64,000 bases of DNA from a phage, in the NCBI GenBank assembly GCA_024875585.1, contig GCA_024875585.1_4107.1. One strand, given 5' to 3'. A program made the translations under genes and the position numbers. How positions within the stretch are numbered: position 1 is the stretch's first letter; the number at the start of each line of letters is the position of its first letter. Shown in pieces: positions 13,470-52,611 of this stretch. The notes beneath the pieces were generated by a model. The model saw only the letters and a program-made list of their open reading frames with translations. It made no database searches and was not told the DNA's origin.

Positions 13470-13470
13470 T

Positions 13471-13833: not shown

Positions 13834-13834
13834 T

Positions 13835-14206
13835 ATGAGTTACCGTGAGATATTTTCCATTATTTCAATTATTATGTTCAGTGCTGGGACATTGGTGTGG
13901 GTATTATATTTTTTCTGTGTATCACCAGTGTATAATATGTTATGTAATATTAAATCAAGTTCTGGATATATGACTTTTATGATCTTTATGGGATATTATT
14001 GTCTAAGCATTTTAGGTGTTGTTTTGGTTGTTATATTTGATGTAGGGCCAAATAAGGATGGTCTGAAAATGTATGAGTTAATAACTATGTTTGGGTGTAT
14101 GATACCAACTGCACTAATGTTTGTAGCTATTGGTGCTGGATGTATAAAGTTATACAATTATTTAAAATCCATTCATCATTCCATTCATAATAAACGTATG
14201 TCATAA
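13835..14206 (+). CDS. family D small multi-pass membrane protein
   Basis: tail HHSIHNKRMS; last of the array; hairpin ccagtact-gaat-agtactgg follows (14214-14233). Confidence 0.75.
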   Translation: MSYREIFSIISIIMFSAGTLVWVLYFFCVSPVYNMLCNIKSSSGYMTFMIFMGYYCLSILGVVLVVIFDVGPNKDGLKMYELITMFGCMIPTALMFVAIGAGCIKLYNYLKSIHHSIHNKRMS

Positions 14207-14247
14207 TAAAAATCCAGTACTGAATAGTACTGGACTAATAAGGAGTT

Positions 14248-14898: not shown

Positions 14899-14908
14899 TT
14901 TAAAATAT

Positions 14909-14936
14909 TAAAGCCAGTACGAGAGCACTGGCTTTA
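14909..14936. terminator. bidirectional terminator between convergent genes
   Basis: taaagccagt-acgagagc-actggcttta, A/T runs on both sides. Confidence 0.6.
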
Positions 14937-14939
14937 ATA

Positions 14940-16085
14940 TTATTTTTTCCAAGGAAGTAACGAAGTTGGAATCTTGATAGGTATATTTGATGCAACAACA
15001 TCAGGAAAATTTGCATCTCCACAAACATACAAATTATCGATTTCGTCTATCAATAATGTATAGTTGTAACTTCTACAAAAACCACTTAAGACTCTTCCCT
15101 CTAATGCAGATAAATTCATTTCAGTGAATTGAGTGATATATGTTTCATTTGAACCAACACCACATTGACCATTAGCATTTATACCACAAGTAAGCAATTT
15201 ATTATTGTTTTGAATTACACATGATGGTCCAGCAAGGTTCGTACCTAGTTCACCTACAACATTAACTTCACCTTTTAATGATAAATTTGGGATCACTGTA
15301 CTCATTGGGACTCGAGATGTATTTCCGACACCTGCTTGCCCTGAGCCATTAGTGGATGCTACTTTAACAGTACCGTCATTAAGAAAAATATAAGATGTTT
15401 CGATTGTATTAACTGCTTGAGTAGCTGATGTTATTGACGTATCCTGTTTGAATTTAAGTACATTTGTCGTTGTTGAACCAGAGATAAATGTAGCACCTGC
15501 GTACCAATATGTTCCATCCTGGAGTACTAAACCAGTACTTCTAATTGAACACCCAGCACTTCGAACATTTTCTATATGACTATATGTAAAGGTTGATACG
15601 ATTGAAGATTCACCATTACCGAACACCCCACCAGTACCTGCACCACAGAAAAACCATTTACCGTTTTTCAAAAATACACGCATACAAGCAGAAATAACCA
15701 CACTATCAATATCACTTGCAGTTACACCAAAATCGGTAAAGAAATGAGTTATATCAATCCAATTACCACCAGTATTTGATGGGAGATGTGGAATTACAAC
15801 TCTAGTCCCTGTGTACCAGATTGTATCATCATCTTTAATAACAAGCGTACCTTGAACACCACCCCAATACCTGGTTACATTAGTATTAACAAGTGTCCAC
15901 TCATTAGATGATTCCGTTGAGCCATTACCACCTTGACCATATGATGATGAACCGCACCAGTATAAATTGCCATTTTTATTTAAATAAAATTTTGCATCAG
16001 CCGAACATTGTAATCTGTATTTGAATACAGTTTTTGGTGCTGGTGCAATATTTGCATACTTAATCATTCTTCCAAAAGGTAACAT
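14940..16085 (-). CDS. RCC1-like repeat (beta-propeller) protein, paralog 1
   Basis: N-terminus MLPFGRMIKYAN; repeats LYWCGSSSYGQGGNGS, WFFCGAGTGGVFGNGES, LLTCGINANGQCGVGSNE. Confidence 0.75.
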   Translation of the reverse strand: MLPFGRMIKYANIAPAPKTVFKYRLQCSADAKFYLNKNGNLYWCGSSSYGQGGNGSTESSNEWTLVNTNVTRYWGGVQGTLVIKDDDTIWYTGTRVVIPHLPSNTGGNWIDITHFFTDFGVTASDIDSVVISACMRVFLKNGKWFFCGAGTGGVFGNGESSIVSTFTYSHIENVRSAGCSIRSTGLVLQDGTYWYAGATFISGSTTTNVLKFKQDTSITSATQAVNTIETSYIFLNDGTVKVASTNGSGQAGVGNTSRVPMSTVIPNLSLKGEVNVVGELGTNLAGPSCVIQNNNKLLTCGINANGQCGVGSNETYITQFTEMNLSALEGRVLSGFCRSYNYTLLIDEIDNLYVCGDANFPDVVASNIPIKIPTSLLPWKK

Positions 16086-16151
16086 ATTTTCCTCCTTTAT
16101 TCATTATACTGTATTTAACCCAATTAAGAAAAGCCAGTATCAAGTACTGGT
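16086..16151 (-). promoter_or_regulatory. conserved upstream cassette (SD + TATAAT) plus terminator hairpin of the gene above
   Basis: minus-strand reading: ccagtacttgatactgg hairpin, ...cagTATAATgaataaaggaggaaaatATG; -10 at 16103-16108. Confidence 0.5.
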
Positions 16152-16157
16152 ATTTTA

Positions 16158-17507
16158 TTATTGTAATGGAATTTCAGTGAGTGTTTTATATGTACTTCCG
16201 TTATACACCCCTCTCCAATATACTTTACCATCAGTACTAACCACTAATAATCCATATGTTGTAAACCCAAGAGTACCACCAACATACATAGCATCTTTGA
16301 TTCTAATACCAATGTCTTCATATGTAAATGACGCGACTGCACCCGCTTGCCATGACGGACTAGCGTAGTAATCACTATAAACACCATGTGCTTTATATAT
16401 TGATGTTGTTCCTGGTTCAAAAATTACAGTTCCACAGTAGTTCATTCGTATTTTAGTACTGGATGAAGTTGGTACATTTATACCCACGTCATCTTTTATC
16501 CCTGTGGTTAGAACGTTAAAACCCCCCGCCACACGGTTGACATCATTCTCACCGATTGAATACATACCAACGTTGTAGCCCATATAATACACACTAGAAC
16601 TTCCATTCCAGAAAGAAAAACCACCACCATTACCACAGCGATATAGTTGTGAATTTGAGCAGTACATCATACCTTCGTTTGTTGCATCAAATTCATCTGC
16701 TGTTCCGATCACAGCCACTGTAGTCCATGTTTTAATCACTTGGTTTGCACTAGCGGGTTTTTGAATACCATATCGTATATTATATCCTTTACCGACTATT
16801 GTACCATCTTCTAATTTGGCATAAAGTACAGGTCTATTACCAACAAAATACATATTATTGTGTGACATGTCTATTGTACGTCTTAATGAAACTACTTTTT
16901 TTGTCAATTGATTATCTTTAGTAAAAGACGTAAAGTAGTAATCCGATGTTGAATTGTTTATTAAACCTTGTATTGACAACCCCATATACCAGATTTCTCC
17001 CTTACTATTCAAAGATGCCAAAATACAACTATATTTTGAAGTGTATGTTGGGTTTACTGAAGTTGCTGGTCCTTTGTCATATCCACCACAGAATACCATC
17101 TCCACAACTTCACCTACGTTAGCAAAATAAGAAGATACATTGATAAAACCATTTGTTATAAAAGGTGCTGTATTTATACTTGAATGTGTGAATATCCCAT
17201 TTGCATATACACCACAAAAATGATATGAACCATCATTATCTTGGACTATTATTCCATTTGATAGTAACCAAAAATTGTTTACATTTTTTCTTACTAATTC
17301 GATTCCTGCCCCATTAGTTGGCGTTATACCAAAAGAAACATATTTTGTTTGACCAATTCCATATAAATTTCCATTTGATGCTAATATTGCACCAAACCAA
17401 TTACCACCACCATTCTTGTTATGACCCATACCTATAGAATCAAATTTCTTAACAGTAGGAGCTTGTACTTTGTTCCCATAATTCACCATTCTTCCAAAAG
17501 GTAACAT
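16158..17507 (-). CDS. RCC1-like repeat protein, paralog 2 (most diverged)
   Basis: N-terminus MLPFGRMVNYGN; LYGIGQTKYVSFG, LYRCGNGGGFSFWNGSS. Confidence 0.65.
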   Translation of the reverse strand: MLPFGRMVNYGNKVQAPTVKKFDSIGMGHNKNGGGNWFGAILASNGNLYGIGQTKYVSFGITPTNGAGIELVRKNVNNFWLLSNGIIVQDNDGSYHFCGVYANGIFTHSSINTAPFITNGFINVSSYFANVGEVVEMVFCGGYDKGPATSVNPTYTSKYSCILASLNSKGEIWYMGLSIQGLINNSTSDYYFTSFTKDNQLTKKVVSLRRTIDMSHNNMYFVGNRPVLYAKLEDGTIVGKGYNIRYGIQKPASANQVIKTWTTVAVIGTADEFDATNEGMMYCSNSQLYRCGNGGGFSFWNGSSSVYYMGYNVGMYSIGENDVNRVAGGFNVLTTGIKDDVGINVPTSSSTKIRMNYCGTVIFEPGTTSIYKAHGVYSDYYASPSWQAGAVASFTYEDIGIRIKDAMYVGGTLGFTTYGLLVVSTDGKVYWRGVYNGSTYKTLTEIPLQ

Positions 17508-17573
17508 ATTTCCCTCCTTTATTCATTATACTATATTTAATACTAAAAGAAAAAGCCAGTATCAAGTACTGGC
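17508..17573 (-). promoter_or_regulatory. conserved upstream cassette + terminator hairpin
   Basis: ...aaatatagTATAATgaataaaggagggaaatATG (minus); hairpin gccagtatcaagtactggc 17555-17573. Confidence 0.5.
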
Positions 17574-17579
17574 ATTATG

Positions 17580-18689
17580 TCATTTTGGTAAATTAATTTT
17601 AGTAAAGACTGCAACATCCTCGATTGCACCAGGAATTGCGTAATACGATCCAGTACTATATACATCTCCGTCTTTGGTTAATATTGATGTTAAACCATCA
17701 CTAAAAAGAACATCCCTAATCTCACTAACTTCAACGGGTAATTGTAAATTAGTAGCACTATATATTGCACCAGTTTGAGAATTGTTTAATCCCAAACCAC
17801 GGTTCGCCCCAACACCCTTCTGATATGTACTAGTAATTACCATTTGTGTAGCAGTATTTAAGGCAGGTGAATTCGTCATAAACAACGGTGAACTATTAGG
17901 CAAAGTACTTGCAGGAACTGCACGAAATGTAGTTGTATCTGAACTAAGAAAGTTTGGCGTTTGACCACATACGAAATATGATGTACCATTATAGTAATTA
18001 AATGCATTACCACCAATGACTGCATCGATTACACCAGAGCTACGTAATCCCCACGTGTTAATTTGTGTTCGGTTCCCCGTGCCATGCTGACCCCTGTCAT
18101 TCCACCCAGAACTATATAACTTATTATCTAATGTAATATACATACTGTCATTTGCATTCGTCATTACTTTACGCACATTAGTAGCACATTGAGTTAATGT
18201 GTAAATTGATGATGAACCAATACCTAAAGCACCACGATATCCATTAGCTCCTGCACCATAGAGTACTGAACTAGTGCTAAGTACAAATATTAAACCATAC
18301 GAACATACAATATTAGCAATTTCACTCACTGGTATAGCACTGGTAAACCAATTAGTTCTTTCAACTAATACTGTGCTGTAAGAAGTAGTTGTAGACGATG
18401 TGAACCAATATGTTTCCCCTGATGTCCATATAGTATTATCATTTTTAATAATAACAAGTGCACGATCACCTACGAAAAAATTAGAAACATCTGCACTTAC
18501 TAATATCCATGAAGATACCGTGTTTTTATTACCATTTCCAGATTCACCACCTTGATTTCTACCTATGTAATATAAATCATGTGAATCAGTTAATAAGAAT
18601 TGACCCTGTGTAGATGCACCAACTTTAATTATATTTTTAGGACCAGGTACAATATTCCCATAATCAAACATTCTTACAAAAGGTAACAT
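17580..18689 (-). CDS. RCC1-like repeat protein, paralog 3
   Basis: start at MLPFVRMFDYGN (18689) as in paralogs; LYYIGRNQGGESGNGNK, LYGAGANGYRGALGIGSS, LYSSGWNDRGQHGTGNRT. Confidence 0.75.
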   Translation of the reverse strand: MLPFVRMFDYGNIVPGPKNIIKVGASTQGQFLLTDSHDLYYIGRNQGGESGNGNKNTVSSWILVSADVSNFFVGDRALVIIKNDNTIWTSGETYWFTSSTTTSYSTVLVERTNWFTSAIPVSEIANIVCSYGLIFVLSTSSVLYGAGANGYRGALGIGSSSIYTLTQCATNVRKVMTNANDSMYITLDNKLYSSGWNDRGQHGTGNRTQINTWGLRSSGVIDAVIGGNAFNYYNGTSYFVCGQTPNFLSSDTTTFRAVPASTLPNSSPLFMTNSPALNTATQMVITSTYQKGVGANRGLGLNNSQTGAIYSATNLQLPVEVSEIRDVLFSDGLTSILTKDGDVYSTGSYYAIPGAIEDVAVFTKINLPK

Positions 18690-18760
18690 AACTAAAATCT
18701 CCATATAATAATTATAATGTATTTACAAAAAAATACCAGTACGTATTTCAGTACTGGTAT
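18690..18760 (-). promoter_or_regulatory. upstream cassette + terminator hairpin
   Basis: minus reading gtaaatacatTATAATtattatatggagattttagttATG; hairpin ataccagtac-gtatttca-gtactggtat 18734-18760. Confidence 0.45.
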
Positions 18761-18763
18761 CAT

Positions 18764-19945
18764 TTATGGTAAAATGATAGATTGTAACGAACTCATACCC
18801 AATGCTGGAACACTAGCCTGTGGTGCTGGAGAATTCAATTTTGGTGATGAAACCGCATATGACATTCCTGAACCCAAATCTGGATCAAAAACTACAGCAC
18901 AATAATTCCCACTATATATAAGTCCATTCTTGTATCCTTGTGCACTTTGAATGCATTTCGTGAACGTACCAATATCTGTCGTGGCATTTATTAAGTTCCT
19001 CCCACGATAACCGCAGGTGTATATGAAATTATCATCGCCTATGTACATACTAGAATCCCCAGAAGAACTACATAGATACGACATATAAGCACGCATGTTT
19101 TTAGGAGCAACTGACAATGTACCTGCATAGAATTTATTATTCGAACCCGTAATATCACCATCACCCAATGCACCAAAACTTCCCCAGCCAGTACCGTAAT
19201 ATCTCTTATCACTCAAAAATATAATACAGTTGTTATTACACATCTTGATTTGATATATCAATGAAGGATCAACCCCAGGGAATGATTCAGTGAATGTTAG
19301 AACAGCCGGATCAGTACTAGCATTACATTGATGATATGTATTAGTACCAGCGGACAAGATTGTTCCATTAGCTAACAGAATTCTCGCAGTACCAGTACCA
19401 GCAGTACAAGCAACTGCACTTCCTGCACTTCCGGTGTATATTTGTCTGAAAGTAAAGAAACCAACAGTTTTACTTCCCTGCCCACTCCAACCAGTATTAT
19501 CAACTCCACACGCCCATACTGAACCATCTTGCATGATCATCATTACACCAAAGCGTTCTATTGAAATATAAACAATCTTCGTTGTATCAACTGCACTAAA
19601 TCTAGAAGTTATATCAGTCCATACCTTAACACTTACCGCCGTCGCACTGGAAGTAGGATCTTCACCAGCTATCATTATCCTCCCATTGTTAGTAAGATAC
19701 ATTGTCTGACTATAACCAGTACTACAAAACTTAACACTATCAGTCTCTGGAACTTTTAACCACTCGTTGTAACGTGTTACGTTAGTGTTATTACCTAACT
19801 GATAATAGTTATTCATCCCAGATACATATAACACACCATCCTTTATTAAACTATAAGTCGCACTATAGTCACTACAGGTATAACGTGTACCCACAGGTCG
19901 CTCAACGACGTTCCCGTACTTAACCATTCTCCCAAAAGGTAACAT
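18764..19945 (-). CDS. RCC1-like repeat protein, paralog 4
   Basis: MLPFGRMVKYGN; LYVSGMNNYYQLGNNTN, VWACGVDNTGWSGQGSK, YYGTGWGSFGALGDGD. Confidence 0.75.
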   Translation of the reverse strand: MLPFGRMVKYGNVVERPVGTRYTCSDYSATYSLIKDGVLYVSGMNNYYQLGNNTNVTRYNEWLKVPETDSVKFCSTGYSQTMYLTNNGRIMIAGEDPTSSATAVSVKVWTDITSRFSAVDTTKIVYISIERFGVMMIMQDGSVWACGVDNTGWSGQGSKTVGFFTFRQIYTGSAGSAVACTAGTGTARILLANGTILSAGTNTYHQCNASTDPAVLTFTESFPGVDPSLIYQIKMCNNNCIIFLSDKRYYGTGWGSFGALGDGDITGSNNKFYAGTLSVAPKNMRAYMSYLCSSSGDSSMYIGDDNFIYTCGYRGRNLINATTDIGTFTKCIQSAQGYKNGLIYSGNYCAVVFDPDLGSGMSYAVSSPKLNSPAPQASVPALGMSSLQSIILP

Positions 19946-20011
19946 ATTTTCCTCCTTTATTCATTATACTATATTTAATACAAAAAGAAATGCCAGTATC
20001 AAGTACTGGCA
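19946..20011 (-). promoter_or_regulatory. conserved upstream cassette + terminator hairpin
   Basis: ...aaatatagTATAATgaataaaggaggaaaatATG (minus); hairpin tgccagtatcaagtactggca 19991-20011. Confidence 0.5.
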
Positions 20012-20018
20012 TATTAAT

Positions 20019-21167
20019 TCATTGTATAAATGACATATCTACTTCTGTATAATTAAGAACGTTCTGTCCAGAAATACCACCCATTACTACTATTGCAAGG
20101 CCACAATAATATAATTTTCCAGTATCCGTAAGTATAAGTGATCCAGATGGACTGCGTACCAAATCACACGAACTATTAAAAGAAGTATAAGAAGGAGTAT
20201 AGGAGTACTGATTATTATTATTACCAACACCTAATTGCCCAAACCCATTCGATCCAGAAGCATATAGAACTTCATCTGCTTTGACAATATGTGATGCCAT
20301 GTTACCAACACAAGTATATAGAGTATAAACTCCTGAACTCAATAATGTCGGAGTTTTATATTGTATATCTGTAGATGTAGAAGTACCACCTGTACCAAAT
20401 TCGTTCCCATATTGTGCACCGAACTGTTTACCACAAGCGTACAAATTATTATCCGATTTGATAAAAAATGTACTCTGATAACTTACATTAAAATCTATAA
20501 CATCCGAAGAAATCATCGTCACCCCAGTAATAGAAGTTTGATTACCCGTGCCCAACTGGTAGTAATAGTTAAAACCACAACCCCATAAAGTATTATCTTC
20601 TCGCAAATAAATGTTACCAACTGCCTTTTTAACCGAAGTTATAGTATCTACTCTTTTGAATGTGTTAAAAGAATTAATGTTTGTACCATCACCAAATGAT
20701 GATATGTTCGATATATTGTTAACTCCACAACAATACAATGTACCATCTTTTGTTATCAAATTCACCTTCATATCATAAAAACTACTCATGTATTTTATAT
20801 CAGAAACATTAACACCACTTGATGTTATCCACGTAGTACAGTCCGTCCACAAAGTTTTTCTATCAGTTACACCAGTGAATGCCTTCGTGTTACCAGTGAT
20901 AAAAACTTTTCCAGTACCTTTCTCTTCATACAATTGACAATCACTACTGTTATCTTCCAATAGAACTCGTTTAACATTCTCCGCACAAAGAATAAATTTA
21001 CTCGATGCTACACCTGTACCAGTACCCCAATTCGTCGCAGAAGATGCATACAACTTATCAGTATAAGTATCATGAAGATACATAGAATCACTGGAATATA
21101 TTTTAAAACGCCCTTCTTTCTCAGGTATAATATTCCCGTACTTAACCATTCTCCCAAAAGGTAACAT
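20019..21167 (-). CDS. RCC1-like repeat protein, paralog 5
   Basis: MLPFGRMVKYGN; LWGCGFNYYYQLGTGNQT, LYACGKQFGAQYGNEFGTG, LYASGSNGFGQLGVGNNN. Confidence 0.8.
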   Translation of the reverse strand: MLPFGRMVKYGNIIPEKEGRFKIYSSDSMYLHDTYTDKLYASSATNWGTGTGVASSKFILCAENVKRVLLEDNSSDCQLYEEKGTGKVFITGNTKAFTGVTDRKTLWTDCTTWITSSGVNVSDIKYMSSFYDMKVNLITKDGTLYCCGVNNISNISSFGDGTNINSFNTFKRVDTITSVKKAVGNIYLREDNTLWGCGFNYYYQLGTGNQTSITGVTMISSDVIDFNVSYQSTFFIKSDNNLYACGKQFGAQYGNEFGTGGTSTSTDIQYKTPTLLSSGVYTLYTCVGNMASHIVKADEVLYASGSNGFGQLGVGNNNNQYSYTPSYTSFNSSCDLVRSPSGSLILTDTGKLYYCGLAIVVMGGISGQNVLNYTEVDMSFIQ

Positions 21168-21200
21168 ATCCCCTCCTTATTCATTATATCATATTTACCC
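21168..21200 (-). promoter_or_regulatory. conserved upstream cassette
   Basis: minus reading gggtaaatatgaTATAATgaataaggaggggatATG. Confidence 0.45.
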
Positions 21201-21209
21201 AAAAAACAC

Positions 21210-21238
21210 TTGACACCCTTTCAGTACTGTTGTACGAT
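21210..21238 (+). promoter_or_regulatory. sigma70-type promoter of the family C array (divergent from RCC1 island)
   Basis: TTGACA(21210-15)-17nt-TACGAT(21233-38); spacer contains cagtactg. Confidence 0.55.
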
Positions 21239-21263
21239 AGAAGGAATATTAGGAGAACTACAC

Positions 21264-21491
21264 ATGACAAATACCCTTAAGTACTACCTCAATACTCTGC
21301 CCGACCTAGAGTACGGGAAGTTTCTCGCAGATAGTTCGTGGCTGATTGAGCTAAAAACACATAACAGCCCTGGATGCACCCTTATGATGAACAATGCAAT
21401 TGATACCCTTATAGTGAGTATTTTACATAGCAATATCTACGAGGATAACAATAAACAATTAACAAAAATCTTAGTACTGCTATCTCTATGA
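21264..21491 (+). CDS. family C small protein (diverged member)
   Basis: ATG 21264 after aggag; LKYYLNTL.., MNNAIDTLI.., tail ILVLLSL. Confidence 0.65.
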   Translation: MTNTLKYYLNTLPDLEYGKFLADSSWLIELKTHNSPGCTLMMNNAIDTLIVSILHSNIYEDNNKQLTKILVLLSL

Positions 21492-21700
21492 ACACTATGA
21501 GCACTGAACAGTTCTACATCAATGCACTACCAACTAAAAGTCTTCAAGAAAGCTTACTGTATACACAAAAGAATTTTAAAAACTTCAAACGTTGCCCTAA
21601 ACTACTGAACTCGTACAGGAATAATATTATAAGAAATGTTTTACAAGGAGAAGAAAGTATGCAATACTATCACATCCTTATCCTTATATTGGAGTACTAA
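21488..21700 (+). CDS. family C small protein
   Basis: ATGA overlap; EQFYINAL.., tail ILILILEY. Confidence 0.65.
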   Translation: MNTMSTEQFYINALPTKSLQESLLYTQKNFKNFKRCPKLLNSYRNNIIRNVLQGEESMQYYHILILILEY

Positions 21701-45150: not shown

Positions 45151-45348
45151 GTGCGTATTTTAACTCAAGCAGAACACCACGAAAGACTTATCAATAACAT
45201 GGCTATGATAATGTATAAGTCCCATGACCGTGGTATTGCCTATAAGCGTGAATTAGTACTGGAACTATTCATTGGAACTAACTTTCAGGAAAGGTATGTC
45301 AACGATTGGATTTGGTATTTAATTGAAGATATAACGAGTAAACTATGA
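45151..45348 (+). CDS. family A small protein (LGTNYQE-motif paralog) A1
   Basis: GTG 45151 after aagggag gives family-like N-terminus VRILTQAEHHERL; IGTNFQERYV...ITSKL. Confidence 0.7.
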   Translation: MRILTQAEHHERLINNMAMIMYKSHDRGIAYKRELVLELFIGTNFQERYVNDWIWYLIEDITSKL

Positions 45349-45539
45349 TCATTTTAAATAAAGAAGAATATCAAGAACTGTTACGTAAAAACTTTGTAAA
45401 GATTTATAATACAGACACACACGTAGAACGAATGGAGTTATACCTTTTGATTACATTGGGAACTAACTATCAGGAAAGATGGGTGATTCAATATATGGAT
45501 ACATTGAAAAATAAAATATTGTCCACGAGGAAACAATGA
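45345..45539 (+). CDS. family A small protein A2
   Basis: ATGA overlap; MIILNKEEYQELL; LGTNYQERWV. Confidence 0.85.
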   Translation: MIILNKEEYQELLRKNFVKIYNTDTHVERMELYLLITLGTNYQERWVIQYMDTLKNKILSTRKQ

Positions 45540-45745
45540 AAACTATAACACGAACCCAATCATACGGACTTATCTTGAAATACATGGACTTAATGGTGGA
45601 TATCAGCAAAGACCTGCCTAAAACTGCAATTGAAGTTGCAAGAGCAGAGATCCGCATGTTGGCTGTACTGAACACAAACCATCAGGAAGAGTATGTTGAC
45701 GATTGGATTCGATTTTTAATAGAAGATATTAAGAGTAAACTATGA
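45536..45745 (+). CDS. family A small protein A3
   Basis: ATGA overlap; LNTNHQEEYV...IKSKL. Confidence 0.85.
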   Translation: MKTITRTQSYGLILKYMDLMVDISKDLPKTAIEVARAEIRMLAVLNTNHQEEYVDDWIRFLIEDIKSKL

Positions 45746-45954
45746 TTATATTAACACCTGAAGAATATAAGAAACGTTTTAATTCTGTCCAGACTGAAAT
45801 ATTACTTATATACCTTTCAAATGCAGATCTTAACTTATCAAGGGTAATGGAGAAGGATTTACTTATGGGTGCATTTTTGGATACAGACTTTCAGGAGTAT
45901 TATGTAGGGGAATACTTTATTGCACTTCAGAACCACATTAAGAGTAAACTATGA
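45742..45954 (+). CDS. family A small protein A4
   Basis: ATGA overlap; MIILTPEEYKKRF; LDTDFQEYYV. Confidence 0.85.
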   Translation: MIILTPEEYKKRFNSVQTEILLIYLSNADLNLSRVMEKDLLMGAFLDTDFQEYYVGEYFIALQNHIKSKL

Positions 45955-46166
45955 TTATTCTAGAAAAATCATATCAATATACTGAACGCATCGCTGCCAG
46001 ACAACTTGAAATCCTCATAATATACGAAGAGACTTCTGATTTAAACTTAGCCGAGGTATTGGAAAATGAAATACTTTTGGGTGCATTCTTGGGAACAGAC
46101 TATCAGGAGTATTATGAGGAAAAGTATTTGTCATCTCTTGAGAAATACGTCAGGAGCAAACTATGA
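45951..46166 (+). CDS. family A small protein A5
   Basis: ATGA overlap; LGTDYQEYYE. Confidence 0.85.
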   Translation: MIILEKSYQYTERIAARQLEILIIYEETSDLNLAEVLENEILLGAFLGTDYQEYYEEKYLSSLEKYVRSKL

Positions 46167-46390
46167 AACATTTAAGTAATATAGAGAAGAATAAAATTAT
46201 CATTGCTGTAATAAACAAATATTTTACACTTCCACAAAAAGAATGTTTATCTATAAGGGAACACAGGATAAACACCACCGAGATTCGCATGTTGGCTGTA
46301 CTGGGGACTAACTTCCAAGAAGGCTATGTTCATGAGCACATCGTTGCACTCACTAATTACATAATGGACAAATGTAATGAACATCATTAA
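46163..46390 (+). CDS. family A small protein A6
   Basis: ATGA overlap; LGTNFQEGYVHEHIVALTNYIMDKC. Confidence 0.85.
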   Translation: MKHLSNIEKNKIIIAVINKYFTLPQKECLSIREHRINTTEIRMLAVLGTNFQEGYVHEHIVALTNYIMDKCNEHH

Positions 46391-46601
46391 TAACTTTGAA
46401 TACGAGGCCCGTGCTAAGAGTGCCAGAAAAAAAGAGAACACCATTTACTTCACTATGATGTACTTACAATGGACTGAAATTGAAGAAAAGGTTGCTGAAG
46501 TATGGATGTTGGAATTCATGGGGACGCAGTATCAGAATAGGTTTGCGGGTGAGTATATCAATGTTCTTATGAAACAAATAGAAAGGAAGGAAAAGAACTA
46601 A
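46377..46601 (+). CDS. family A small protein A7
   Basis: MGTQYQNRFA. Confidence 0.8.
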   Translation: MNIINNFEYEARAKSARKKENTIYFTMMYLQWTEIEEKVAEVWMLEFMGTQYQNRFAGEYINVLMKQIERKEKN

Positions 46602-46690
46602 TGGAGGGATGCTGTACTTTATTGGAACTTTTATATATTCATGAACACATAGTTGCCCTCACAAATCTAATAAAGGATAAATGTAAATGA
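46601..46690 (+). pseudogene. truncated family A remnant (C-terminal half only, 29 codons)
   Basis: MEGCCTLLELLYIHEHIVALTNLIKDKCK aligns with the 3' half of A6 (..VHEHIVALTNYIMDKC); GTNxQE region degraded. Confidence 0.55.
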
Positions 46691-46944
46691 AACACTTGAC
46701 TGATGATGAACATGAAACTATAATTCGTAAACTAACCCCCATCACAAGGATAGTCTACGGTGATCCCAGCCTCACATGGAACCAAATGCGAGCTAAAGTT
46801 AATGAGCTATGGTTGCTGTACTTTATGGGGACTCAATATCAAGATAAGTTTTGCACAGAATATATCGAACAATTAACGAATGTTATACAGGATAAACTAA
46901 ATGAACGAATTGTGGAAAAATATGAAAACTTTATCAAGCATTGA
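46687..46944 (+). CDS. family A small protein A8 (3'-extended)
   Basis: MGTQYQDKFC; usual ..aaactATGA junction reads aaactaaATGA here, so the ORF runs 18 extra codons. Confidence 0.8.
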   Translation: MKHLTDDEHETIIRKLTPITRIVYGDPSLTWNQMRAKVNELWLLYFMGTQYQDKFCTEYIEQLTNVIQDKLNERIVEKYENFIKH

Positions 46945-47173
46945 GTATCAGACTGCCCTCTTCTCTCTTCTAAACACCCTCCGCACGAACAATAAACTTT
47001 ATAATTCCCGTGAAGCTGATATTGTCAACGCTGATGTATATCTTAATAAATTTATAGGGACTAACTATCAAGAACTGTTTGTTTTACGATATATCTCTGC
47101 ACTAAGAAACGAAATATCAGATAAAACCCGCCAAGCCAGAAGAGAATGGAAGAGACAATGCAACAAAGACTAA
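46901..47173 (+). CDS. family A small protein A9
   Basis: IGTNYQELFV; start at junction ATG 46901 or at 46922 (MKTLSSIEY, more family-like). Confidence 0.75.
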   Translation: MNELWKNMKTLSSIEYQTALFSLLNTLRTNNKLYNSREADIVNADVYLNKFIGTNYQELFVLRYISALRNEISDKTRQARREWKRQCNKD

Positions 47174-47409
47174 ATCACAAAATGTATTGTAAACTATTAC
47201 AGAATCTAGGACAAAAACACTATGATACAGTATCTGAAATATTACCCTATGATATCATGCGTTTAATTCATAGTGAGGCAGAGATGCTTGTACTGATGAC
47301 CGGTACTGATAAAACAGCAATCACCAGATCGATAGAGCAATATATTGATGCACACTGTCAATGTATTAGAACTGAGATATGGAGGCGAGTAAATGAAAGT
47401 ACTGAATGA
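47146..47409 (+). CDS. family A small protein A10 (diverged)
   Basis: MTGTDKTAITRSIEQYI in the motif position. Confidence 0.65.
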   Translation: MEETMQQRLNHKMYCKLLQNLGQKHYDTVSEILPYDIMRLIHSEAEMLVLMTGTDKTAITRSIEQYIDAHCQCIRTEIWRRVNESTE

Positions 47410-47608
47410 GTATCAGTATCATTGGAGGTTACAAACTATAAGAGGGAAAGTTGTTAGTATTTCTTTAGATAAGTCTATTGCACAAGAGGACAAATGTGTT
47501 ATAATAGCTGAAATGAAGTTGGGTGTATTTGTAGGAACAAACTATCAAAACATCTACACTGACGTATTATTAAGTGCCTTACGCAACAAGGTGTTATCCA
47601 GAGAATGA
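47393..47608 (+). CDS. family A small protein A11
   Basis: VGTNYQNIYT. Confidence 0.85.
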   Translation: MKVLNEYQYHWRLQTIRGKVVSISLDKSIAQEDKCVIIAEMKLGVFVGTNYQNIYTDVLLSALRNKVLSRE

Positions 47609-47823
47609 GAAAATTAATAGGTTACGAATATGTTAAGCTTCTGAAAACCTGTAGTATTAGCAGGGTAAAGATTCAATCTGATAAGAGTATTCCTGTTGAA
47701 CTAAAGTACGCAATGATGGCTGAACTTTATGTAGGTGCACTATTGGGGACAAACTATCAACAAATGTATGTAGACCTATGGGTTGACGCACTACTGAAAG
47801 AGGTCCAAAGTAAATGCAAATGA
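47605..47823 (+). CDS. family A small protein A12
   Basis: ATGA overlap; LGTNYQQMYV. Confidence 0.85.
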   Translation: MRKLIGYEYVKLLKTCSISRVKIQSDKSIPVELKYAMMAELYVGALLGTNYQQMYVDLWVDALLKEVQSKCK

Positions 47824-48035
47824 TTCATTTATCTTACTATGAATATCAAAAACGTTTAAATGCATCAAGGGATATAAGGATTAAAATCTACAATAACAAA
47901 AGATTGAAATCTGAAGCCAAAAAAATCAAAATGATAGAAGCTGAATTATGCAACTTCCTTGGGACGAACTATCAGGATGATAAGGTAACAAACTATCTTA
48001 GAGAACTAATGATTAGTATCAAGAGTAAATGTTAG
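47814..48035 (+). CDS. family A small protein A13
   Basis: LGTNYQDDKV. Confidence 0.85.
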   Translation: MQMIHLSYYEYQKRLNASRDIRIKIYNNKRLKSEAKKIKMIEAELCNFLGTNYQDDKVTNYLRELMISIKSKC

Positions 48036-48045
48036 GCAGATGTAC

Positions 48046-48297
48046 ATGAAAATGATTAAATTATCTCAAGCAAAATATAAAGAACGCCTGGTGAAAATTG
48101 CACCTAGACTTAATGAAATCCATCACGGAGAAGTCATTAAACACGGAAATAAGATGATTATGAAACTTGAGTTAAAGGTGGGTGCATTCATAGGAACAAA
48201 CTATCAGGAGTATTATGTAGATGAATACATAATCGCACTTAAGAGATACATTGGAAGAAAACTATATCTACAAACTAAAGAATTGTATTGCAAATAA
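48046..48297 (+). CDS. family A small protein A14
   Basis: IGTNYQEYYV; three candidate ATGs (48040/48046/48052). Confidence 0.8.
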   Translation: MKMIKLSQAKYKERLVKIAPRLNEIHHGEVIKHGNKMIMKLELKVGAFIGTNYQEYYVDEYIIALKRYIGRKLYLQTKELYCK

Positions 48298-48314
48298 ATG
48301 CAAGGATAATGAAT

Positions 48315-48578
48315 ATGAAAATGATCAATTTAAGTAAAGATGAATATACCGAGCGTATGACAAAAATTACGCACAAACGTAATACAATCTATCACAACCC
48401 AGAAATTCAACACAGTAAGAAAATGATTATGATGCGTGAGTTAAAGATGGGTGTATTCTTAGGAACAAACTATCAAGATACAGAAGTAAATCGCTTAATC
48501 GCGGAGTTACTACTGGAAATCAGAGGTAAGCTGTACTTTCATCAAATGACCCAACCACTGAGGTGTACTAAGAAATGA
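48315..48578 (+). CDS. family A small protein A15
   Basis: LGTNYQDTEV; ATG 48315 has best spacing to aagga. Confidence 0.8.
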   Translation: MKMINLSKDEYTERMTKITHKRNTIYHNPEIQHSKKMIMMRELKMGVFLGTNYQDTEVNRLIAELLLEIRGKLYFHQMTQPLRCTKK

Positions 48579-48790
48579 TCAACATCACATTGCAAGAAAG
48601 ATTCATCCGAATCAACTATGCAATTACCAAATTAGATGCTACTATAGGATTCCAAAGTCTACCGTTCCAAACAAGAATGATATTAGAGTGCGAAGCTAAA
48701 TTGGGTGTACTGTTAGGAACGCAACACCAACAACGATATGTGGAAATCTGGATTGATCTTTTAACCCAAAATGTACATGAGAAAATGTAA
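48575..48790 (+). CDS. family A small protein A16
   Basis: ATGA overlap; LGTQHQQRYV. Confidence 0.85.
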   Translation: MINITLQERFIRINYAITKLDATIGFQSLPFQTRMILECEAKLGVLLGTQHQQRYVEIWIDLLTQNVHEKM

Positions 48791-49027
48791 ATGAAAAATG
48801 AAATGATATACTTAACGAATGAAGAGTTTCAAGAGAAGATGTTAAAAATCTATGATAATACTCTTGAGTACGTTCCAAATCAATCAATATATGAAGTGTC
48901 TGCGAATGTATTATTTCAGAAGCTACCATACGTTCTTGGAACGGATAAACAAGAATTTATGGTCAAAAATATGATTGAACATCTTATGATGAGTATTAAG
49001 GAAAAAGTGAATGCAAAAGAAAAATGA
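48791..49027 (+). CDS. family A small protein A17
   Basis: MKNEMIYLTNEEF; LGTDKQEFMV. Confidence 0.8.
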   Translation: MKNEMIYLTNEEFQEKMLKIYDNTLEYVPNQSIYEVSANVLFQKLPYVLGTDKQEFMVKNMIEHLMMSIKEKVNAKEK

Positions 49028-49274
49028 AATGATATACTTAACACCTGCTGAGTTAACAGAAAGACTAGTTAAATCCAGAAGATATACAAATCAACTTCCT
49101 CACAACCCAAATCAAACCCCAGCGGAAAGGAGTGCAGAAGTTTTATTCCAATCACTACCATACCTTCTTGGAACTAATAGACAAGAGTATCATATCGAAC
49201 GTATAATTAAATATCTTAAAATTACTATTAAGGAAAAAGTAAATGCTCAAGAATTTAAAAATCCTAACAGTTAA
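49011..49274 (+). CDS. family A small protein A18
   Basis: MQKKNEMIYLTPAEL; LGTNRQEYHI. Confidence 0.8.
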   Translation: MQKKNEMIYLTPAELTERLVKSRRYTNQLPHNPNQTPAERSAEVLFQSLPYLLGTNRQEYHIERIIKYLKITIKEKVNAQEFKNPNS

Positions 49275-49485
49275 TGAATATCATAAGATTGTAATGAAAA
49301 CTAATAGTGCAATTTCTAAAAAATCAAACCCAAAGTACATACTGGAACACACATTTGAAGAACGTCAATTAGCTTTAGTTGAAGCAAAACTTCTTGCACT
49401 ATTAGGAACAAACTATCAGGAAGAATACATCAGAAAACTAATATACCTTTTAACTAAACACATCAGGAAAAGAAAAAAAGCATGA
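49243..49485 (+). CDS. family A small protein A19
   Basis: LGTNYQEEYI. Confidence 0.85.
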   Translation: MLKNLKILTVNEYHKIVMKTNSAISKKSNPKYILEHTFEERQLALVEAKLLALLGTNYQEEYIRKLIYLLTKHIRKRKKA

Positions 49486-49712
49486 AGCACTTGACAGATG
49501 ATGAACATGGGCTTATAGTAATGGATGTAATCAACATCGAATACAAAAAGTTGATACGCTATCGTTGTTATGAAGATAAGCAACTAGTTCTAGCAGAACA
49601 GAAGTTGTTTCGACTCTTAAACACAAACTTCCAAGCACAATACGAAGAATCGTATATGTACCTTTTGGCGAGGAAAGCAAAAAGAGATTATGAAAATTTT
49701 AAGCAAAGGTGA
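49482..49712 (+). CDS. family A small protein A20
   Basis: ATGA overlap; LNTNFQAQYE. Confidence 0.8.
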   Translation: MKHLTDDEHGLIVMDVINIEYKKLIRYRCYEDKQLVLAEQKLFRLLNTNFQAQYEESYMYLLARKAKRDYENFKQR

Positions 49713-49911
49713 TTCAGTAATATTACTTATAGAGAGTTCAAATAAATTCTTAAACATAACACTGTCTGATATAGATGAAGATGATAAAGAAGTACTGAGA
49801 GCAGATTTAAGAGTACTGTTACATCTCGGAACAAACCTACAAGAAGAATATGTAGAGTACTACATTGATGAACTTAAAGAATCAGTACTGAGAAGATGCA
49901 AATGCGAATGA
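49690..49911 (+). CDS. family A small protein A21
   Basis: LGTNLQEEYV. Confidence 0.85.
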   Translation: MKILSKGDSVILLIESSNKFLNITLSDIDEDDKEVLRADLRVLLHLGTNLQEEYVEYYIDELKESVLRRCKCE

Positions 49912-50123
49912 TTACCGACGAAGAATACCTAACAATTATAAATGGATTGTTTTTGAAGTTGTTTGTTATTAACACATCAGATATACCAGATATGGATAAA
50001 ATTATTAAGAGAAATGAAATCTATGTTCTAGCTACCCTGGGAACTAACTATCAAGAATGCAATATTAATGATTATATTAATACACTTAAAGGAGCGATTG
50101 AACTAAAATGCCAAAACCACTAG
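49896..50123 (+). CDS. family A small protein A22
   Basis: LGTNYQECNI. Confidence 0.85.
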   Translation: MQMRMITDEEYLTIINGLFLKLFVINTSDIPDMDKIIKRNEIYVLATLGTNYQECNINDYINTLKGAIELKCQNH

Positions 50124-50323
50124 GAACAGCAGAATACATTGAACTCATGGGATTACACTTCTCATCCTTTCAGAAACTTATGCGAGAATCAAAGAATGAT
50201 TTAGAATATACCATCAGAGGTTCAGATTTAAGAATGCTTCTCACCCTAGACACAGATTCCCAAGAGAGATTTGTCAATGAGCATATTAGAGCACTTTTAA
50301 TGGAAATTAAAAGTAAACTATGA
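50108..50323 (+). CDS. family A small protein A23
   Basis: LDTDSQERFV...IKSKL. Confidence 0.8.
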   Translation: MPKPLGTAEYIELMGLHFSSFQKLMRESKNDLEYTIRGSDLRMLLTLDTDSQERFVNEHIRALLMEIKSKL

Positions 50324-50535
50324 AGGTAATATCAAACCAAGAGTACTTGGCACTATTCAGGAAGAATAATCACAAATATATGGCACTTGATTCAAGAACT
50401 GATATAGGGGAACTTGAAAAAAATCTTTTGCGTTCAGAGATGATAGTACTGACACTCTTAGGAACACAACATCAAGAGAGAACTGTTGATTCATATATTG
50501 AGATTCTTAAGAAGCTTATACAGGAAAAACTATGA
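50320..50535 (+). CDS. family A small protein A24
   Basis: ATGA overlap; LGTQHQERTV. Confidence 0.85.
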   Translation: MKVISNQEYLALFRKNNHKYMALDSRTDIGELEKNLLRSEMIVLTLLGTQHQERTVDSYIEILKKLIQEKL

Positions 50536-50762
50536 GAATCATAACACAAACAGACATATTTAAGTTAGCAAGGGAACATACATCTGAAATTGATGCTATA
50601 GTATCAAAAAGTTACAATGACCCTTATACACAAGATGTGCACTACAATGAATTATGGGTGTATATACTTTTAGGTACAAATTATCAAGAGCAAGCAGTAC
50701 AGAAGTATTTGGCAGCTTTAAGTACTGCTACTGCTAATAGTATAGGTATTAAAAAATGCTAG
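50532..50762 (+). CDS. family A small protein A25
   Basis: ATGA overlap; LGTNYQEQAV. Confidence 0.85.
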   Translation: MRIITQTDIFKLAREHTSEIDAIVSKSYNDPYTQDVHYNELWVYILLGTNYQEQAVQKYLAALSTATANSIGIKKC

Positions 50763-50992
50763 TACTGACAGAACTAGAAATGTATCATAGATTTAATAAG
50801 TACTATCATTTACTTAAGCCTATACAGAGGATTAAATGTCCATTTGAAGAGAAACAGGTATTAATTTATGAGCATAAGTTATTTGTATCATTAGGTACGA
50901 ATGAACAAGAGTATTATTTGAAGTTGTACTTAATTACTTTAATTGAATTGATTAATCACAAAACACAGAAAGCTAAGAAATCTAAAAAATGA
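50756..50992 (+). CDS. family A small protein A26
   Basis: LGTNEQEYYL. Confidence 0.8.
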   Translation: MLVLTELEMYHRFNKYYHLLKPIQRIKCPFEEKQVLIYEHKLFVSLGTNEQEYYLKLYLITLIELINHKTQKAKKSKK

Positions 50993-51327
50993 AAACTAAT
51001 ATTCAACTCAAGGTATACATATCTTATGAATCTATATACATCAAATGCAGTCTATGTAAAGATGTAATGGATTATAAAGGTAAGCCATTCACAATTACTT
51101 ACAGTCTAACAGGAGGCTTTTATATATCTTTTGTTGATTACGAAAATAAAATATACAAGCACATTGATATTAAAGATTTAAGTACCTTGTCAGATGAGGA
51201 ATACTTTCAAGAATCATTAGTATGGGATTTAGAGTTTCCTATGACATTAGTACACAAAATGATAGTACTAATGAAAGAAACTAAACCTGAGCCGAGTGGT
51301 TATGAAGAATTCATTATTGAGTATTAA
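50989..51327 (+). CDS. family B protein B1 (short form, core domain only)
   Basis: ATGA overlap; LSDEEYFQESLVWDLEF. Confidence 0.8.
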   Translation: MKTNIQLKVYISYESIYIKCSLCKDVMDYKGKPFTITYSLTGGFYISFVDYENKIYKHIDIKDLSTLSDEEYFQESLVWDLEFPMTLVHKMIVLMKETKPEPSGYEEFIIEY

Positions 51328-51339
51328 GAGTACTGATAT

Positions 51340-51555
51340 ATGAAAAGATTATCATACAAAGATTACAGTAAACTTATCAGTACTTTACAACCAGAAATTA
51401 GAAGAATTAATTATCTTCCTATACCCAACGAAGAACGTGTAGTACTGAAAAATGAGTTAATATTAAAACGCACAGTAGGTACTAACTATCAAGATAATAG
51501 TGTTTGCGATTTAATTAGAGGGTTAATGATCACAATAAAGGCCAAGTGCTATTGA
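51340..51555 (+). CDS. family A small protein A27
   Basis: VGTNYQDNSV. Confidence 0.85.
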   Translation: MKRLSYKDYSKLISTLQPEIRRINYLPIPNEERVVLKNELILKRTVGTNYQDNSVCDLIRGLMITIKAKCY

Positions 51556-51561
51556 CAGTAC

Positions 51562-51591
51562 TTGACGGAGCTTTTCATTACTGATATAGTA
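51562..51591 (+). promoter_or_regulatory. possible sigma70-type promoter
   Basis: TTGACG(51562-67)-18nt-TATAGT(51586-91). Confidence 0.4.
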
Positions 51592-51619
51592 CACTAACGT
51601 TAATCATAGGGTAGAAATT

Positions 51620-51865
51620 ATGTTAAAATTTTTAAATTTCCTTATCGTCTTGTGTATTGTTCTTGGGATTGCACCGTTTGTACTGGTGTATATGGATTCA
51701 GATGAAATGCAAAAGATGAATTGCACAAAGACGGGACAGAGTAGAGAAGAGACGATTCTTATGCCTGTTACTGTTATTGTTAATAATATGCCCATTACAA
51801 ACATGGTCCCTACCCTAACGACAACGTACCAGTACTCTTGTACAGACGGGGAGAGGTGGAGATGA
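51620..51865 (+). CDS. small membrane/secreted protein (81 aa)
   Basis: N-terminal hydrophobic MLKFLNFLIVLCIVLGIAPFVLV. Confidence 0.65.
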   Translation: MLKFLNFLIVLCIVLGIAPFVLVYMDSDEMQKMNCTKTGQSREETILMPVTVIVNNMPITNMVPTLTTTYQYSCTDGERWR

Positions 51866-52182
51866 AATTTAATATAGCAAAAACATCGAATGTATGTATA
51901 TTTGGTTATGCAGAAGAGTTAGGTGATATTGACATTCTTTTGTACAAAAAGGATGGTGTTATGCATTTCAAGTACCAGGATGAAGAGGCAGACAATTATC
52001 TTTTGCCTAATTTAGTACAAATGCAGGAAGAGGAATTATTCCAGTACAGCTTAGTATATGACATTGATATTTGCACGATGCCAGTACTAATTAATATTCA
52101 AAAAGTGATGCTCGATGTGTTTGATAGGCTAATACAAGGCACACAAGGAAGAACCATATATGTCAATGTACAAGACAATTAA
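51862..52182 (+). CDS. family B protein B2 (short form)
   Basis: ATG 51862 after ggtggag; MQEEELFQYSLVYDIDI. Confidence 0.8.
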   Translation: MKFNIAKTSNVCIFGYAEELGDIDILLYKKDGVMHFKYQDEEADNYLLPNLVQMQEEELFQYSLVYDIDICTMPVLINIQKVMLDVFDRLIQGTQGRTIYVNVQDN

Positions 52183-52375
52183 TCAAGAATGGAAGAATCA
52201 AAAGTACAGAGAATTCAATAGGAATTTTACAAAAGACGAATTGAATATAAAAACAACAGAATTTGATATGTTTATTTTTCTCGGAACACGTTCTCAGGAG
52301 CAATTTGTTCATTATTATATAAATTCGTTGCGAGCGGAGATAGTATGCAAAACAAAGGGTATTATAAAAAGGTAA
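52160..52375 (+). CDS. family A small protein A28 (diverged)
   Basis: LGTRSQEQFVHYYINSL. Confidence 0.75.
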   Translation: MSMYKTINQEWKNQKYREFNRNFTKDELNIKTTEFDMFIFLGTRSQEQFVHYYINSLRAEIVCKTKGIIKR

Positions 52376-52611
52376 ACCAACATTTGTACGCTACAAAGTA
52401 CAGGGATTTTTGTTTAAAGGGTGGTGATGAAGATTTTTCTTTGCGATTATCAGAATTTAATCTGTTATTTTATCTTGGTACATCGGAACAAGAAGAAATG
52501 GCACAGAAATTTCTCAATCACCTTGTACAAAAAATTAATATGCAAATTTTGATGCTTAAGTTACAGGATGAGATAAATGAATATGAACCCAACAATAGTA
52601 CAGGATCTTAA
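52345..52611 (+). CDS. family A small protein A29 (diverged)
   Basis: LGTSEQEEMAQKFLNHL. Confidence 0.75.
   Translation: MQNKGYYKKVNQHLYATKYRDFCLKGGDEDFSLRLSEFNLLFYLGTSEQEEMAQKFLNHLVQKINMQILMLKLQDEINEYEPNNSTGS

Follow-up and report, generated by a model that had tools for sequence, protein, structure and literature searches.

A tandem family of small, predicted four-helix proteins beside the terminal repeat of an Asteriusvirus jumbo phage

Terminal tandem gene families that serve host range and immune evasion are known from large viruses of eukaryotes, among them the MGF110, MGF360 and MGF505 genes of African swine fever virus (ASFV) and the host-range genes and "genomic accordions" of poxviruses. 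In phages, the T4-type hyperplastic regions are made of promoter/stem-loop cassettes (PeSLs), and T5 has its pre-early genes in the terminal repeat. The subject of this article is an array of small paralogous genes, termed family A, at positions 45,151 to 52,611 of a 64,000-nucleotide stretch of phage DNA (contig GCA_024875585.1_4107.1 of assembly GCA_024875585.1), the whole of which is called the window. In 2017 Hua et al. reported in one sentence in mBio a tandem array of ">30 very similar genes" in phage 121Q and another in phage G (PMC5646251). The 121Q array is almost certainly the same locus as the family A array; genes of a second family, B, stand next to its 25 family A copies. Hua et al. 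called the genes "very similar" and proposed no function, whereas the copies analyzed here share 24% identity, are individually conserved, lie at the boundary of the direct terminal repeat (DTR) and have relatives in Klebsiella phages. No further mention of the array was found in the literature searched; the motif string appears in none of the relevant papers, and the genome papers on UE-S1, Sharanji, fEgEco12, G17, phAPEC6 and CBB do not analyze the array. In PHROGs the same family forms phrog_4148 and phrog_28039, sequence clusters without function, structure, copy number or context. The existence of the array and its clustering in PHROGs were already known; new, as far as the searches show, are its anatomy, the fold prediction, the position at the DTR boundary, the distribution over two genera and the mode of evolution.

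Bacillus phage G carries a zinc-ribbon expansion of about 35 copies (Iyer et al., 2021, PMC7824862). In both cases a small protein has multiplied within one lineage of jumbo phage, and a diversified binding function has been suggested. Family A differs in that it is predicted to be all-helical, has no conserved Cys or His and no DNA-binding signature that could be found, and shows no homology to the zinc ribbons. The ASFV and poxvirus families resemble it as tandem paralogs close to terminal repeats whose copy number and content vary between strains; the viruses, hosts and proteins are unrelated, and the duplications in family A are ancient rather than recent and accordion-like. The T4 PeSL and T5 regions share with the array small early genes, host-type promoters, a location near or in terminal repeats and shuffling at conserved short sequences. 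Their genes are unrelated to one another and have their own promoters, in contrast to one family present 29 times, with overlapping genes, a single promoter and junctions as recombination boundaries. Anti-CRISPR (Acr) and other anti-defence loci likewise encode small (about 70 residues), soluble, helical proteins that are placed early and turn over rapidly between relatives, but in the searches made family A has no sequence or fold match to a solved Acr or anti-defence protein, no adjacent helix-turn-helix regulator was identified, and 29-fold paralogy is atypical of such loci.

The array appears to have arisen by expansion, within this phage lineage, of a single family of small, soluble four-helix proteins encoded in the early part of the genome. 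The likeliest explanation, offered tentatively, is that it encodes an early-made, co-translated repertoire of some 25-30 surface-diversified variants, each of which would bind a different macromolecular target, host proteins of defence or takeover being the most likely.

Membership, distribution and predicted fold of family A

Open reading frames (ORFs) of 64-96 residues bearing the box (L/I/M)GT(N/D/Q)xQ occupy positions 45121-52611 of the plus strand. A profile built from 29 ORFs was searched against the 412 ORFs of the window. It retrieved all 29 source ORFs with E values from 1e-17 to 5e-27 and matched none of the others, the next best having E 0.011. When each copy in turn was left out of the profile, 28 were still strongly supported (E 6e-7, for copy 29, to 7e-22); copy 10 (47146-47409) gave E 0.9. 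In this copy (TGTDKT) there is a 6-residue insertion in the motif after GTD, and the near-invariant Q is missing. A profile of its orthologs aligned with the other 28 copies in the correct register (hhalign profile-profile comparison, P = 0.0026, as against 0.18 for a family B control), its size and slot are like those of the other copies, and orthologs are present in all phages compared. It is a probable, very divergent member, and the count is therefore 28 secure copies and one divergent, probable copy.

Column statistics show conserved M1, L4, T/S5, E8 and Y9 at the N-terminus, a central box in which G is found in 25, T in 29 and Q in 28 of the 29 copies, and a tail of the form Y-I-x-x-L-x-x-x-I-x-S-K. 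Pairwise identity between paralogs averages 24% and reaches at most 53%, and no gene-sized tandem repeat was detected at the DNA level in the window (TRF). A remnant at about 46553-46687 (..YIHEHIVALTNLIKDKCK before its stop codon) matches profile positions 55-72 with E 2e-4; it is the frameshifted version of a 52-residue ORF that is intact in G17 and SD-15_S21. Where copies 14 and 15 meet, a third reading frame contains a segment bounded by two stops (48233-48334) that weakly matches profile positions 56-72 (E 0.003); it may be a second buried remnant. An initial annotation, made from the sequence alone, had described 29 intact genes and one truncated remnant with a common N-terminus, GT box and tail, strongly diverged from one another outside the motif, and had not recognized the motif from any characterized family. 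With copy 10 graded as probable and the remnant recognized as frameshifted, the count agrees with this, as do the column statistics and the low identities.

Database searches also support the last point. Twenty-eight of the copies match phrog_4148 (best E 5.7e-27), residues 3-73 of the first member corresponding to positions 1-71 of the 74 in that profile, and 14 match phrog_28039 as well; both PHROGs entries are of unknown function. Pfam-A, NCBIfam and PADLOC gave only scattered sub-threshold hits (E >= 5e-4), with no family hit by more than one copy. Against PDB sequences the best E was 0.34 with the 29-sequence profile and 4 with a 116-sequence profile, and a fold search of BFVD returned only family members from other Asteriusvirus phages. 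The profile searches that had been proposed as a check for a known housekeeping domain thus found none.

An exhaustive profile search of 1.84 billion representatives gave 88 hits; one, a 1771-residue eukaryotic repeat protein, was rejected as spurious, which left 87 clusters. A word-indexed search of 5.8 billion proteins gave 132 hits, many of them on contigs of about 340-380 kb, and every name given by a source was that of E. coli or of an Escherichia/Salmonella phage. Divergent representatives trace to the Klebsiella phages RaK2, K64-1 and Muenster (Alcyoneusvirus); two others had no match among sequenced phages. By these matches, all traced clusters belong to Asteriusvirus or to the Klebsiella Alcyoneusvirus. 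In RaK2 gp173 and Muenster gp059 (14980-15366 and 23347-23694 of the stretches compared) the family A domain is fused to a C-terminal domain of about 50 residues, giving proteins of 115-128 residues; the two extensions are alike and have no counterpart in the window.

An AlphaFold2 model of copy 13, computed from an alignment of the 29 paralogs only, is a compact four-helix domain with a predicted local distance difference test (pLDDT) score of 97.1 and a predicted template-modelling (pTM) score of 0.80. The predicted helices span residues 8-17, 19-26, 33-47 and 54-72, and a one-residue beta-bridge joins residue 4 to T51. Where the last helix begins stand the invariant T and, three positions further on, the invariant Q, with the G in front. 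T and Q so placed and preceded by G form the pattern of a helix N-capping box. Given this pattern and the bridge to the conserved N-terminus, the LGTNYQE box is most economically read as an element of the fold rather than as a functional site. Conservation otherwise extends to hydrophobic core positions and to E8, E42, E55 and K72; all other columns are polar and vary strongly between copies. Isoelectric points (pI) range from 4.4 to 10.0 and net charges from -7.5 to +9.8. Transmembrane segments and conserved Cys or His were found in none of the 29 copies. Each copy has 0-3 Cys, none in a conserved column, which is not the pattern of a zinc ribbon.

In the proposed scheme the variants would share a hydrophobic core and a conserved pole, formed by the N-terminal strand, E42 and the G-T-N-x-Q-E helix cap, and would differ radically over their helix surfaces. 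The "arsenal of small binders" suggested in the initial annotation is plausible in that it fits both this surface diversity and the early-region position described below. The charges also bear on the idea that the copies are small nucleic-acid- or RNA-polymerase-binding modulators of transcription. About half of them are basic (pI 9-10), they lie in the early region with many promoters nearby, and phage G offers an analogy in its zinc ribbons (PMC7824862); the rest are neutral or acidic (lowest pI 4.4), and K72 is the only conserved basic position, which makes a regulatory role improbable.

Selection and exchange of whole genes

Ratios of non-synonymous to synonymous substitution (dN/dS) were calculated by the Nei-Gojobori method between the window and nine phages. 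Family A had pooled values of 0.34-0.41; nine DTR genes upstream of it gave 0.15-0.25 (about 0.20), and genes downstream gave 0.20-0.48. Individual family A genes ranged from 0.13 to 0.76 (median 0.34), and none of the 29 exceeded 1. Column by column, with 170 ortholog pairs pooled, the corresponding ratio of proportions (pN/pS) peaked at 0.89 in helices 1 and 4, where the positions are exposed, and was 0.00-0.2 in core and motif columns. The variability of a column among paralogs followed its replacement rate among orthologs (Spearman 0.64). These per-gene and per-column ratios indicate that each paralog is functional and under purifying selection, with relaxed surfaces; on the sequence evidence all 29 are real coding genes. 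The diversifying selection assumed in the initial annotation is not supported, for the dN/dS and per-site comparison it called for revealed net purifying selection in every gene, and no gene or column was above 1 in pairwise and pooled tests (codon site models on phylogenies were not run).

It might be supposed that the array is mostly dispensable ballast, a tandem duplication that fills spare capsid capacity and has little individual function. Hua et al. (2017) read the 121Q array as tandem duplication adding to genome expansion (PMC5646251), and the window has one pseudogene and several copies without their ancestral stop codons. Set against dN/dS below 1 in all 29 genes, strong constraint at core positions (pN/pS 0.00-0.2), ancient paralogs intact in ten genomes and retention of the family in two genera, this is the least likely of the alternatives and a very improbable one.

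The family A profile was used to count copies in each genome. There are 28 in UE-S1, 29 in vB_Ec-M-J, 31 each in G17, Turkey3 and PBECO4, 30 in phAPEC6, 23 in A4, 25 in 121Q and 27 in SD-15_S21. Klebsiella phage Muenster has 12-13 and RaK2 8-9 in the stretch examined, scattered in small groups that are interleaved with family B; fENko-Kae01 has none. The 284 proteins of ten Asteriusvirus genomes fall into 28 clusters at 50% identity, 15 of which have members in every genome, and 106 at 90%; the ortholog clusters common to all ten are put at 14-15. A recent amplification or an assembly artefact was considered and rejected on the grounds of the missing DNA-level repeat, the 24% identity and the 23-31 copies in nine other complete genomes. 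The duplications are old, as had been surmised, and a single copy in the relatives, which would have pointed to an artefact, is not what the comparison found.

Positional orthologs are mostly kept, but identity between phages is a mosaic. The gene at 48040 shares 99% identity with its counterpart in G17 but 49% with that in vB_Ec-M-J, and the gene at 45536 is 64% identical in UE-S1, otherwise the closest phage, and 100% in 121Q. Sliding identity profiles contained 127 transitions between high and low identity, which reduce to 52 unique breakpoints, 45 of them inside family A units. Twenty-four of these 45 lie within 25 nt of a gene junction, compared with 10.1 expected (chi-square p = 1e-5), and nine lie at the GT motif, where 10.1 were expected. 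Recombination at the DNA of the GT motif was also entertained and was discarded when its raw enrichment disappeared on collapsing breakpoints shared between phages. Enrichment at gene junctions only implies that the unit of exchange is the whole gene, and it is plausible that the conserved junction sequence serves as the recombination joint. Diversity between phages arises by gain, loss and replacement of cassettes.

Gene order, junctions and the terminal repeat

All genes of the array are on the plus strand. The first starts at a conserved (A/G)TG at 45151, here GTG, with AGGGAG in front (copy 1, 45151-45348, MRILTQAEH..); an ATG upstream at 45121 was rejected as the start, as it falls inside the -10 box of the head promoter. 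Copies 2 (45345-45539), 3 (45536-45745), 4 (45742-45954), 5 (45951-46166) and 6 (46163-46390) each overlap the preceding gene by ATGA. Copy 7 (46377-46601) is followed by the remnant (46553-46689) and by copy 8 (46687-46944), which has lost its ancestral stop and has a C-terminal tail that runs into the next gene, copy 9 (46901-47173, conserved start probably 46922). Beyond copy 10 are copies 11 (47393-47608), 12 (47605-47823, ATGA overlap) and 13 (47814-48035), the modelled one, in which the conserved start at 47820 gives an ATGA overlap. Conserved internal starts are likewise present in copies 14 (48040-48297, at 48052), 15 (48288-48578, at 48321, the TTG at 48288 being doubtful), 17 (48791-49027, at 48803) and 18 (49011-49274, at 49029), while copy 16 (48575-48790) has an ATGA overlap. 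Then come copies 19 (49243-49485), 20 (49482-49712, ATGA overlap), 21 (49690-49911), 22 (49896-50123, with an alternative start at 49908 that gives an ATGA overlap), 23 (50108-50323), 24 (50320-50535) and 25 (50532-50762), both with ATGA overlaps, and 26 (50756-50992).

This uninterrupted block of 26 genes (45151-50992) has 25 junctions, of which 24 overlap or are spaced by no more than 23 nt. ATGA overlaps make up 10 of the 25, or 12 when conserved internal ATGs are used; nine others overlap by 7-44 nt, a few are spaced by 0-23 nt, and one 85-nt gap contains the remnant. In the longer copies the ancestral stop has been lost and reading continues into the following gene. The conserved tail ..(K/R)-S-K-L is coded as A(A/G)GAG(T/C)AAACTATGA, and the upstream gene therefore supplies a Shine-Dalgarno-like AAGAG or AGGAG about 11 nt before the next ATG. 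No terminator-like site was found on the plus strand within the array. The overlaps, this lack of an internal terminator and the promoter-like site upstream are what is expected of a translationally coupled operon, and coupling is probable on the layout.

Beyond copy 26 there are two interruptions, at 50989-51339 and 51556-52159. Between them they contain two family B genes, a small ORF of membrane type and another promoter-like site. The first family B gene (50989-51327; 112 residues, with the motif EEYFQESLVWD) overlaps copy 26 by ATGA and belongs to the same gene string without being a member of family A. Copy 27 (51340-51555) follows; it is absent from G17, phAPEC6, PBECO4, 121Q and SD-15. 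After it come the second promoter-like site (51562-51590, plus strand, TTGACG-17-TATAGT with TACTG before the -10), an 81-residue ORF with a hydrophobic N-terminus (51620-51865; phrog_8826, of unknown function), the second family B gene (51838-52182; 114 residues, phrog_13866) and copies 28 (52160-52375) and 29 (52345-52611). The array is thus probably two transcription units rather than one. The initial annotation had seen one long, translationally coupled operon with mostly ATGA or TAATG junctions; the coupled, operon-like layout stands, the single unit probably does not, and ATGA overlaps are a minority of the junctions in the uninterrupted block.

A tightly overlapping, coupled layout could also set the stoichiometry of one early hetero-oligomeric or polymeric assembly inside the cell, such as a scaffold or coat, with the copies as its subunits. 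The paralogs are kept as distinct genes, about half of them core to the genus, and the conserved pole could be a homotypic interface. A fixed assembly is hard to reconcile with 23-31 copies among close relatives, with slots that are freely lost or swapped, with surfaces from strongly acidic to strongly basic and with Klebsiella relatives that get by with about 8-13 scattered copies, and it is considered quite unlikely.

The interruptions raise the further idea that families A and B (motif EEYFQxSLVxD) act together as matched pairs or modules, with A proteins as adaptors, inhibitors or chaperone-like partners whose conserved pole contacts a conserved part of B. The families are interleaved in the window (26 A genes, then B, A, B, A, A and 16 B genes) and repeatedly so in Muenster and RaK2, there is one ATGA overlap between an A and a B gene, and both families come directly after the DTR. 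Their numbers do not match, however, being 29 A to 19 B in the window and 12-13 A to 18 B in Muenster. No B gene intervenes in a run of 25 A genes, and in fENko-Kae01, which has at least 11 B genes, family A was not detected, so family B does not need A. Joint action of this kind therefore seems unlikely.

The matches of the window identify its source as an Asteriusvirus jumbo coliphage of the PBECO4/121Q group. The 8 kb around the array match 36 phage records, all of them Escherichia or Salmonella Asteriusvirus jumbo phages (PBECO4, 121Q, G17, phAPEC6 and others); the best match is UE-S1, with 95.5% identity, and all genes under the match are annotated "hypothetical protein." The DTR of fEgEco12 is 20,993 bp long, as confirmed by PhageTerm and restriction digests (PMC13070987). 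Positions 17677-22325 of fEgEco12 are colinear with 41710-46381 of the window, which places the end of its DTR at about 45,030-45,050. The approximate inner end of the left DTR is accordingly set at 45030-45054, and the DTR spans about 24,988-45,050. The array starts some 50-100 bp past this boundary, on the unique side. In vB_Ec-M-J the DTR is annotated as 1..21525 and the first family A ORF is at 21,594/21,624; in Muenster, a Klebsiella phage, PhageTerm puts the end of the repeat at 20,030, and the earliest members of the family lie at 20,246 and 20,524. In fEgEco12, too, the array begins just beyond the DTR. Family A therefore opens the unique region beside the left DTR in two genera.

The DTR is crowded with small genes, each with a near-consensus promoter TTGACA-N9-AGTACTG-TATAAT. 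In the related phage PA5oct the DTR genes are strongly transcribed early (PMC7318152), and the presumed early region of CBB is marked by RpoD-like promoters (PMC5259590). Early expression of the array is a reasonable inference from these reports and from its place beside the DTR. The site at its head (45093-45120, plus strand, TTGACT-16-TAAAAT) is kept in seven of nine aligned phages and is a putative sigma-70-type promoter; A4 and PBECO4 have TTGACA-17-TATGAT in its place, downstream of an inserted gene. Two further sequences resemble promoters strongly, at 11 of 12 positions, but lie inside copies 8 and 20, at 46696-46724 and 49491-49519. Both stem from shared N-terminal codons for MKHLTDDEH; they may act as internal promoters or may be chance products of the coding sequence.

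Several observations concern the surroundings. Position 1 of fEgEco12 aligns to window position 24,988, near a change of sign in the GC skew; this is the physical left genome end, and the window therefore joins the right unique region, one collapsed DTR copy of about 20 kb and the left unique region. About 20 early-type promoters TTGACA-N9-(T)AGTACTG-TATAAT, roughly one per small DTR gene, lie at about 25,380-43,600 (examples are at 35439, 36048, 38871, 39139, 41715 and 43270). Some are within stem-loops (AAAGGGATTGACTCCGGTCAGTCCCTTT at 43570, 41280, 38270 and 34865), and intergenic cassettes of 60-200 bp recur in the DTR at 75-98% identity; these promoter cassettes resemble the T4 PeSL cassettes. 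In A4 (A4_316) and PBECO4 (gp231) an extra gene (3120-3938 and 3611-3976, respectively, of the stretches compared) stands exactly between the DTR end and the first family A gene and is followed by a different near-consensus promoter, which suggests that the DTR boundary is a hot spot for insertion. Farther away, eight back-to-back plus-strand ORFs of similar size (104-141 residues) at 11426-14206, several abutting or overlapping, resemble another tandem block. The window has a single large block on the minus strand, at 14940-21167. It consists of five consecutive ORFs of similar length (381, 449, 374, 393 and 382 residues), which may also be paralogs of one another. Neither tRNAs nor Rfam matches were found in the window.

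How the array may work and what it may mean

If the preferred explanation holds, host RNA polymerase would start at the sigma-70-type promoter about 40-60 bp past the left DTR boundary and produce a transcript covering a terminator-free string of about 27 overlapping genes, with the second promoter serving the last two copies. Ribosomes would re-initiate from gene to gene, by way of the ATGA overlaps or of the Shine-Dalgarno-like AAGAG or AGGAG in the upstream ..K/R-S-K-L codons, and the cell would thereby receive all variants together, early in infection. From phage to phage the repertoire would then alter as whole cassettes are gained, lost or replaced, the recombination boundaries falling at the conserved junctions.

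Several points weigh against a repertoire of host-directed binders. Known anti-defence and takeover proteins showed no similarity to family A in the profile and fold searches. The literature searched yielded no functional or transcriptomic data on the array or its motif, and no transcriptome or proteome for any Asteriusvirus. Over the whole promoter scan 57 sites were found, compared with 57.9 in shuffled sequence, which is no excess, and the promoter call accordingly draws on position and conservation. Roughly half of the ortholog groups are found in every one of the ten phages. This, together with purifying selection and the lack of a site class above 1, fits fixed housekeeping-like roles no less well than an arms race. 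If the copies were subunits or partners of one common complex, a conserved polar pole and coupled, near-equimolar expression would likewise be expected. A virion or T4-type internal protein was set aside on indirect grounds: none of gp462c-gp489c is in the phAPEC6 list of virion proteins identified by mass spectrometry, and the modelled N-terminus is part of the fold through the bridge 4-51. Virion mass spectrometry, however, easily misses small proteins.

In a bolder and doubtful extension of the same explanation, families A and B, both expanded directly at the DTR boundary in at least two or three genera of jumbo phages, would together be to phages what the terminal multigene families are to poxviruses and ASFV. 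They would then form an early repertoire that swaps cassettes by recombination and is built on a four-helix scaffold not seen before. Each copy would neutralize a different host defence or host factor, and the conserved gene junctions would serve both as re-initiation sites and as recombination joints.

The genes of jumbo phages are mostly of unknown function, and this array is a clean, experimentally tractable block in phages of E. coli. Family A takes up about 8% of the window and about 5% of the genes of the phage, one scaffold of which some 25-30 distinct versions are kept across the genus. If the copies are target-specific binders, they would amount to an existing library of proteins on a new small fold that inhibit host defence or physiology, and to a phage counterpart of the host-range multigene families of large eukaryotic viruses. 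If they are instead one assembly or regulators of transcription, they would be a new component of early infection by jumbo phages. Either way, an overlooked stretch of some 30 "hypothetical proteins" now yields specific, testable hypotheses.

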